Origin: a virus
Taxonomy: Duplodnaviria; Heunggongvirae; Uroviricota; Caudoviricetes
Virus record (IMG/VR): IMGVR_UViG_2703718851_000002
Coordinates: 1 to 5,407 of that record
DNA: 5,407 nucleotides
Direction: 5' to 3' (one strand)
Shown here: positions 4,415-4,919 of the stretch, in pieces
Layout: each line of letters opens with the position of its first letter
How positions within the stretch are numbered: position 1 is the first letter of the stretch
Made by a program: the position numbers and the translations under genes
Notes under the pieces: generated by a model
Database searches by the model: none
The model's input: the letters and a program-made list of their open reading frames with translations, nothing else
Told to the model about the DNA's origin: nothing

Positions 4415-4458
4415 TATCATATAAATTTATGTATTTACTCACATACGGAGCATATCAG

Positions 4459-4905
4459 ATGAAAAAATCAAAATTGCTAATCAGTACCATCATCAGCCTA
4501 TTCGTACTAACCGCCTCCTCAGTCAATCACGCTCAAGAAAAAGATTTTGATCCTGAAGTGGCTGCTGATGCAGTCTTAAGGTCCGCCGGGATAGATCCAG
4601 ATAAGAGTGTTGCAAATAAAGCCCCTGCCTCTGGTTTTTGGACCTGCCACGGTATTCGTATGCATATGGGCGTTGATATGGGGTCATGGACAGACCTTGA
4701 TACAGGTGAACTATACACTCAGATAGAAACAGGCCAAATTGACGAACAAGACAAGGATGAAAAGATTAAAGGGACTGATTATCTCTATGCTTTGACTAGA
4801 AATCCTGCGGTTATAAAGTATTTTATCGTTGATAAATCAGGAAAAAATCTTTATATCCGAGATGATGTGAATATTTTTAAGACATATAAATGTAAACGAA
4901 ACTGA
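4459..4905 (+). CDS. Hypothetical secreted/periplasmic protein, 148 aa, cargo gene between mom and the right end
   Basis: ATG 4459 preceded by ACGGAG (the track start at 4429 has no SD). The N-terminus MKKSKLLISTIISLFVLTASSVNHA-QEK is a classic Sec signal peptide with an N-H-A cleavage motif and no lipobox Cys. The mature part is acidic with two Cys and a Lys-rich C-terminus, and the region is visibly more AT-rich than mom. No family recognised. Confidence 0.7.
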   Translation: MKKSKLLISTIISLFVLTASSVNHAQEKDFDPEVAADAVLRSAGIDPDKSVANKAPASGFWTCHGIRMHMGVDMGSWTDLDTGELYTQIETGQIDEQDKDEKIKGTDYLYALTRNPAVIKYFIVDKSGKNLYIRDDVNIFKTYKCKRN

Positions 4906-4919
4906 CATACATAAAACAA

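Follow-up and report, generated by a model that had tools for sequence, protein, structure and literature searches.

Spackle (Sp) and Imm of phage T4, Llp of T5, and Cor are small phage proteins that are exported by means of a signal peptide and act in the cell envelope against superinfecting phages. Few whole genes distinguish the classic model phages Mu and D108; gene 56 of D108 is one of them. Here we analyze a copy of this gene in a stretch of 5,407 nucleotides (positions 1 to 5,407 of the IMG/VR record IMGVR_UViG_2703718851_000002, hereafter the window), where it lies between mom and the right end of a deleted D108-like prophage. Its product, gp56, is in all likelihood a real, exported accessory protein. 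We propose, with a probability of roughly 0.35, that it may act as a periplasmic binder protecting the phage-carrying cell, by an exclusion resembling that of Spackle or of the PliC/MliC/PhiA type.

Identity and distribution of gene 56

The protein encoded in the window is 100% identical to the product of D108 gene 56 (ACV50316.1, from GQ357916), described there as a “D108-specific protein”, and to WP_016024192.1, which RefSeq labels as a hypothetical protein. By tblastn, it matches D108 positions 36697-37140 with 100% identity, likewise between mom and the transposase-binding sites. A first-pass annotation of the window, made from the sequence alone, had been unable to assign this open reading frame (ORF) to any family. 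The gene has nevertheless been annotated in D108 since GenBank entry GQ357916 and, in the profile searches which that annotation had recommended, its product matched PHROG 15648 (function unknown) over its whole length (E = 7.6e-88, residues 1-148 against profile positions 1-148 of 148). It is, therefore, an uncharacterized accessory gene of a known kind, that of the phage accessory envelope proteins. The other searches provided nothing credible. Pfam gave no match to the protein even at E ≤ 10, and the hits to EntF in NCBIfam (E = 0.11 over 50 residues), to Csm2 in PADLOC (E = 0.036), and to 4obm, the sole match in a sequence-profile search of the PDB (E = 0.26), were considered noise. The recommended structure comparison, done with Foldseek against the PDB and BFVD, retrieved no match at E ≤ 0.001, and no Rfam RNA family was found within the window.

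As the first-pass annotation had described, the ORF lies between the mom stop codon (4414) and the right end (4997) and has its own Shine-Dalgarno sequence, which is also kept in locus L015, a relative with 85% identical DNA. An alternative in-frame start (ATG 4429, giving 158 amino acids) was rejected: it has no Shine-Dalgarno sequence, and both the D108 and RefSeq annotations, as well as all homologues, begin at the position equivalent to 4459. Two ORFs on the minus strand (4523-4687 and 4533-4718) were also dismissed because codon-level selection operates in the plus-strand frame.

At the DNA level, six Muvirus records show 99.5-99.8% identity, namely D108 (twice), Mu_3F6, PhiR68_1, and the Yersinia phages vB_YpM_3 and vB_YpM_23; among 50,697 GenBank phage records, these are the only ones that encode members of this family. 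The protein sequence is 100% identical in five of them, including D108, and 99.3% identical in PhiR68_1. Larger searches showed that the family is tiny, with 12 matches among 1.84 billion representative proteins (profile search) and 16 among 5.8 billion proteins (word-indexed search). All the named sources belong to the Enterobacterales, including Hafnia, Kluyvera, Erwinia, and Apirhabdus. The exact sequence occurs on at least 1000 contigs, and close variants within the same 90% cluster have been recorded from Escherichia, Salmonella, Cronobacter, and Citrobacter. A very large protein (P0025, 2316 amino acids) that matched the last 20 profile positions in 38 short stretches (E = 5.9e-09) was set aside as a probable repeat-protein artefact.

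An accessory segment absent from Mu

Comparison with Mu by blastn delimits the segment that distinguishes both phages. Homology (97.9% identity in mom) stops at position 4398, four bases upstream of the Mu mom stop codon, and restarts at 4912; in between, 513 bp replace 33 bp of Mu. This segment (GC content 38.0%) starts with the final codons of mom and the spacer and runs through gene 56 to 6 nt past its stop; it is present in D108. Gene 56 is thus an accessory gene of the D108 lineage that is missing from Mu, in agreement with the first-pass view of the ORF as cargo. The interval initially proposed for this cargo, 4415-4919, does contain the ORF, preceded by a 44-nt spacer and followed by 14 nt, but differs from the segment that replaces the Mu sequence, which spans 4399-4911. 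The same contrast is found in bacterial chromosomes: six of 5426 complete Escherichia coli genomes carry gene 56, whereas 32 have a Mu-type junction without it. The carriers that we inspected contain D108-like prophages with baseplate, tail-fibre, gin, com, and mom genes, found at differing insertion sites.

The left boundary can be refined thanks to the C-terminus of Mom, which exists in two forms, ...PYPK* in Mu and ...PYPKSSSD* in D108-type sequences (window positions 4399-4414). The D108-type tail also occurs in the prophages RM8082 and A21, which do not have gene 56 and show a quite different right-end sequence. Both match the window up to about position 4430, past the mom stop codon. This shared stretch, which includes the mom tail and the bases just past its stop, puts the left edge of the gene 56 cassette near 4430, approximately 28 nt before the ATG. 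Close to this edge, at 4418-4429, there is an AT-rich 12-nt sequence (CATATAAATTTA) directly repeated within the 3' end of the ORF at 4883-4894 (CATATAAATGTA); this repeat is probably due to chance. On the other side, only ~20 nt separate the gene 56 stop codon from the transposase-binding site R3, such that the whole interval from mom to the transposase sites is taken up by the gene.

Composition also sets the gene apart, as had been noticed in the first-pass annotation: the ORF has 39.1% GC (33.6% at third codon positions, GC3) versus 49.3% (GC3 54.9%) for mom. Gene 56 therefore displays two traits of a moron, namely presence in one phage and absence at the same site in a close relative, and a base composition unlike that of its neighbours.

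Conservation of the coding sequence

The pattern of substitutions in gene 56 indicates a real gene under selection. Between the window and L015, where the gene also lies next to the right end, the ratio of nonsynonymous to synonymous substitution rates (dN/dS) is 0.15 overall and 0.12 in the region encoding the predicted barrel domain (see below). The family alignment A1 contains 25 invariant columns, including both cysteines, and distant homologues (27-58% identity) retain the domain, the two cysteines, the positions G59 and K129/D135, and a C-terminal K-x-Y-x-C-K motif, part of a conserved YxCKR ending. By contrast, the signal peptide and the following ~30 residues vary freely. In two loci (L015 300-691 and L029 2052-2908), gin is fused to a truncated mom containing an in-frame stop and the adjoining gene 56 homologue is intact.

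These data make it hardly tenable that gene 56 is a chance or decaying ORF without function. An ORF of at least 148 amino acids arose in only one of 5000 shuffles of the segment 4399-4911, and the identical protein would not be expected on so many contigs. The few copies that are truncated or frameshifted fit such an explanation and count against a functional gene: a Salmonella-type homologue on one IMG/VR contig is frameshifted (L045 1971-2424), and two fragments of 81 and 66 amino acids (P0003 and P0033) derive from one copy in one complete E. coli genome. They are occasional pseudogenes or sequencing errors. The first-pass annotation had singled out a loss of coding capacity in close relatives as evidence that could overturn its proposal; in the 85%-identical relative L015, the ORF is intact.

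Predicted export and structure of gp56

The gp56 N-terminus (MKKSKLLISTIISLFVLTASSVNHA) has three lysines followed by a hydrophobic core (best 10-residue Kyte-Doolittle mean 2.58), and the same tripartite organization into n, h, and c regions was found in all 15 family members checked. The product is thus predicted to be made with a signal peptide for Sec export and cleavage by signal peptidase I. Of the two candidate cleavage sites, ASS|V (21/22) fits the rule of small residues at positions -1 and -3, and NHA|Q (25/26) has an atypical Asn at -3. The first-pass description of a textbook signal peptide holds for the tripartite pattern, though not for this second site. No cysteine is present in residues 1-30 of the window protein, and inspection by eye did not reveal a consistent lipobox among the family N-termini examined. 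One UniRef source name of a homologue reads “secreted protein”. The signal-peptide features seen in every member checked, together with the two invariant cysteines, support an exported protein.

The unfavourable Asn in NHA|Q might also suggest that the N-terminus is an uncleaved signal anchor, which would tether the barrel to the inner membrane instead of leaving it free in the periplasm and would be compatible with any of the functions discussed below. This seems quite improbable: the hydrophobic core is short, in every member checked, small residues occupy positions -1 and -3 of at least one candidate site, and a flexible acidic linker comes next.

The mature protein has a predicted mass of about 13.9-14.3 kDa and the acidic character, two cysteines, and KCKRN tail that had been read from the sequence at first (isoelectric point 5.1-5.3; 21 Asp + Glu versus 17 Lys + Arg; C63 and C145; C-terminus YKCKRN). 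AlphaFold2 (AF2), run with the family alignment, predicted a disordered signal peptide (predicted local distance difference test score, pLDDT, <50 for residues 1-28), a helix at residues 32-42 (moderate to low pLDDT, also predicted in the homologue P0013), and eight beta-strands from residue 59 to 144. Over the barrel residues 51-148, block-mean pLDDT ranges from 78 to 96, being >90 for residues 61-130 and 141-148 and 78 for 51-60 and 131-140, and the same layout was obtained for a Salmonella homologue with 45% identity. The conserved domain is therefore predicted to be an eight-stranded up-and-down beta-barrel of ~93 residues that, in the model, has no C-terminal helix. C63 ends strand 1 and C145 directly follows strand 8 in this model; since the first and last strands adjoin in a closed meander barrel, both cysteines are inferred to form a periplasmic disulfide that would staple the barrel closure.

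Such a barrel could recall those of lipocalins, avidin, or CusF and, accordingly, gp56 might sequester a small periplasmic ligand or a metal in a calycin-like manner. We give little credit to this idea. True lipocalins are about 160-180 amino acids long, far above the ~93 residues of the gp56 domain, which in addition lacks their C-terminal helix and matches no lipocalin or avidin Pfam model even at E ≤ 10. H69 and M70 are substituted in the most distant family member (P0022).

Genomic locations in Mu-like prophages

To place the family in its genomic context, ~35 loci were classified by tblastn with GemA, Mor, Lys, Mom, and Gin. Every locus with a readable context belongs to a Mu-like prophage of enteric bacteria, and three arrangements can be distinguished. 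In the majority, the gene lies on the same strand as its neighbours in the order gemA, ORF, Mor/C-family activator gene, and endolysin gene. In a second group (L011-L014, L018, L034, L036, and L037), it occupies the same gemA-Mor/C slot but is inverted. The third arrangement, after mom and beside the right end, is that of the D108 lineage only (window, D108, L015, L028, and L029). The first-pass annotation had stressed the extreme genome end as a common site of morons. The gene does lie there in the window and D108, but most family copies occupy the gemA-Mor/C slot.

The unit in the gemA slot is often flanked on both sides by the terminator hairpin of the early operon (AAATCCCGC-loop-GCGGGATTT). 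In L005 and L011, which cover both gene orientations, the two hairpins are direct copies at a distance of 552-553 bp. This suggests that the unit is a discrete cassette that recombines at the hairpin, which would explain both the two orientations and its one-off relocation beside R3 in D108. The same slot of other Mu-like prophages contains an unrelated inverted gene encoding 106-110 amino acids with a signal-peptide-like N-terminus and two cysteines (MKKMIIGLALFASLVSPSFA...), for which only weak, sub-threshold Pfam and PHROG matches were found. As another small exported-looking protein alternates there with the gene 56 family, the gemA-Mor/C junction looks like a hotspot for small exported proteins. 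Whatever the function of gp56, this singles out the early-terminator junction as a place where transposable phages tend to carry exported accessory proteins.

The location of most copies one gene upstream of the endolysin (gemA, ORF, Mor/C-family gene, and Phage_lysozyme) raises the question of whether gp56 regulates the lysis of its own phage, by binding the Mu-type signal-arrest-release endolysin (GH24), the releasin, or a spanin, and thereby influences lysis timing or premature wall damage. Several aspects are consistent with this role. Expression together with mom in D108 would presumably be late, when the endolysin accumulates; the fold matches include PliC and PhiA, which are small periplasmic inhibitors of peptidoglycan hydrolases; and the restriction of the family to Mu-like phages would fit a Mu-specific partner. 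However, Mu and most Mu-like prophages lyse without gene 56, its presence in either orientation and at two unrelated positions does not suggest a part of a lysis cassette, and it has no sequence link to known lysozyme inhibitors. We consider a role in the phage's own lysis unlikely. Concerning the restriction itself, it could equally reflect a partner tied to Mu biology or a recombination limited to homologous flanks.

The prophage remnant in the window

The gene in the window is the same as in D108 and has the same position, but it is hosted by a 4.9-kb internally deleted prophage and not by a full phage. Positions 1-5392 match with 100% identity the chromosome of E. coli N61 (NZ_AP028880.1), a bovine mastitis isolate, in which a natural mini-D108 prophage (82-4997, 4916 bp) is inserted in yjiT. 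The Mu left terminus (TGTATTGATTCAC...) begins at 82, matches to D108-like prophages stop at 4997, and the flanking GGGAA duplication is the signature of Mu transposition. A consensus scan for MuA-binding sites found six in the window versus 0.14 expected by chance. The deletion junction lies at about 1486-1500, where the first ~46 codons of the transposase gene A (plus strand, from 1350) lead into the 3' portion of the tail-fibre assembly gene U' (minus strand, 1452-1802), and matches to other prophages begin at 1486. The remnant lacks B, the genes for head and tail, and almost the whole of A, and retains c, ner, S'/U' fragments, gin, com, mom, and gene 56. It could in principle be mobilized in trans by a resident Mu-like phage. 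Table 1 lists the features of the window and of the other loci.

Table 1. Coordinates of gene 56, its subdivisions, and associated features in the window and in related loci.
Feature	Sequence	Coordinates	Strand	Remarks
Gene 56 homologue	Window	4459-4905	+	148 codons plus stop; ATG 4459, TGA 4903-4905
Shine-Dalgarno GGAG	Window	4447-4450	+	8 nt upstream of ATG 4459; read from the sequence
Signal peptide (predicted)	Window	4459-4533	+	Residues 1-25; predicted cleavage after 21 or 25
Variable acidic linker	Window	4534-4623	+	Residues 26-55; from alignments
Conserved eight-stranded beta-barrel domain (predicted)	Window	4624-4902	+	Residues 56-148; AF2
Invariant Cys63	Window	4645-4647	+	In barrel domain
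Invariant Cys145	Window	4891-4893	+	In barrel domain
Segment absent from Mu	Window	4399-4911	+	513 bp versus Mu 36599-36631 (33 bp); blastn against Mu right end
mom	Window	3677-4414	+	TAG 4412-4414; Mom family protein in RefSeq
MuA-binding site L1	Window	92-108		Consensus scan
MuA-binding site L2	Window	197-213		Consensus scan
MuA-binding site L3	Window	237-253		Consensus scan
MuA-binding site R3	Window	4926-4942	+	Consensus scan
MuA-binding site R2	Window	4949-4965	-	Consensus scan; annotated in D108
MuA-binding site R1	Window	4971-4987	-	Consensus scan; annotated in D108
Right terminus ...GCCGCTTCA	Window	4988-4997		Followed by 5-bp target duplication GGGAA 4998-5002 (= 77-81)
D108-type Mom tail	L020	about 5430-5447		
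D108-type Mom tail	L021	about 4362-4379		
Bracketing hairpins	L011	5880-5904 and 6433-6457		
Bracketing hairpins	L005	5910-5941 and 6462-6493		
Hairpin 3' of gene	L016	6443-6472		
Alternative slot gene	L047	2041-2394	-	
Alternative slot gene	L048	2041-2394	-	
Alternative slot gene	L055	2042-2374	-	

Expression and possible function

The first-pass annotation had noted that the ORF lies at a usual place for morons, which would have expression signals of their own. Such signals were not detected: only ~28 nt of the cassette precede the ATG, the best lenient promoter candidate in the window (TACCCA-18-TATCAT) is weak, and there is no sigma-70 consensus or flanking terminator, the latter in contrast with the gemA-slot cassette and its bracketing hairpins. 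The mom operon of Mu is transcribed from a late, C-dependent promoter. Given the short leader and the lack of a detectable promoter or terminator, the simplest reading of the D108 arrangement would be that gene 56 is co-transcribed by read-through from com-mom. Because C is deleted in the remnant, gene 56 may be silent there. In the gemA slot, a weak promoter candidate (ATGCCA-16-AATAAT) was found upstream of the ORF in L005. The inverted copies, to judge from their orientation, cannot depend on the early operon for their transcription and need their own promoter, which a simple scan did not reveal. Expression timing may, therefore, differ between arrangements.

In the mechanism that we favour, gp56 would be a non-catalytic periplasmic barrel that binds a protein partner one-to-one. 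Binding appears more plausible than catalysis, given a small, featureless structured part of ~93 residues, the lack of a match to any catalytic family, and a resemblance to barrels that work as stoichiometric inhibitors or binders. The partner thus blocked would most likely be a muralytic or penetration component used by a superinfecting phage, and the envelope of the phage-carrying cell would be protected. In a more elaborate and more tentative version, gp56 would be the founding member of a periplasmic barrel family specific to Mu-like phages, which would block envelope penetration or wall hydrolysis (for exclusion or for control of the phage's own endolysin) by a binding mode new among exclusion proteins and travel as a cassette of ~550 bp recombining at the early-operon terminator hairpin.

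Besides the broken copies mentioned above, several points weigh against protection by a periplasmic binder. The signal-peptide assignment comes from n/h/c-region heuristics only. Exclusion by a prophage would require expression in the lysogen, for which the window shows no dedicated signals: we found no sigma-70 consensus promoter upstream on the plus strand in the window, L015, or L011, no terminator between mom and gene 56, and no hairpin between the stop codon (4905) and R3 (4926). Late expression with mom, as would occur in D108, would be too late for classic exclusion. A test of membership in the MliC/PliC family (PF09864) was negative (hhalign probability 0.5%, no Pfam match). Finally, a literature search retrieved no paper or experiment on the function of gene 56. 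Articles on SfMu and on Mu-like phages of Yersinia provide genome comparisons and are silent on this gene, and a match to PhiR68 concerned a different phage, PhiR68.2.

The resemblance to inhibitors could also be read in terms of lysogenic conversion, gp56 being then expressed from the prophage and directed against the animal host or competitors, for instance by inhibiting a protease or the host lysozyme, by acting as an adhesin, or by conferring serum resistance. The fold matches include not only PliC/MliC but also staphostatin, LupI, potempin E, and the adhesin Tp0751, and the carriers are enteric bacteria of animals and humans. In addition, the inverted copies need a transcription of their own, and the ORF remains intact in decayed prophages, such as that of the window and those with truncated mom in L015 and L029. 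Nevertheless, gp56 has neither the motifs of MliC/PliC nor a match to their profile, none of the arrangements showed a promoter consensus upstream of the gene, and the restriction to Mu-like phages would be odd for a general fitness gene, as these usually spread across phage types. A conversion factor thus seems improbable.

As things stand, gene 56 is an ordinary uncharacterized accessory gene. If gp56 was indeed an envelope exclusion factor or an anti-lysin, a function would be gained for a protein encoded on no fewer than 1000 contigs from Escherichia, Salmonella, Cronobacter, and Citrobacter.

Comparison with known systems

In the models, gp56 shares with MliC/PliC the form of a small eight-stranded periplasmic barrel, but its likeness to PliC, MliC, and Brucella PhiA is no better than that to streptavidin or designed barrels. 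Calycin-type barrels, such as Treponema Tp0751 (pallilysin), lipocalin-like proteins, avidins, and the Cap15 barrel, likewise count among the nearest known systems. We aligned the sequences of E. coli MliC, Pseudomonas aeruginosa MliC, and Brucella PliC, taken from the PDB, with the family alignment A3 using hhalign. MliC has the motifs SxSGAxY and YxxxTKG, ~10 residues apart, in its C-terminal half; these conserved loops insert into lysozyme. In the gp56 family, PASGFW precedes strand 1 and K-x-KG-T-D-Y precedes strand 5, in a different order and with a different spacing. The hhalign probability given above and these motifs, which are not in equivalent arrangement, place gp56 outside the MliC/PliC family. 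With Spackle, Imm, Llp, and Cor the analogy is functional only, no sequence relationship having been detected in the libraries searched. Spackle is helical and both Llp and Cor are lipoproteins, whereas gp56 is predicted to be a soluble barrel without a consistent lipobox; if the mechanism proposed here is correct, it would add a small-barrel type to the known periplasmic effectors of phages.

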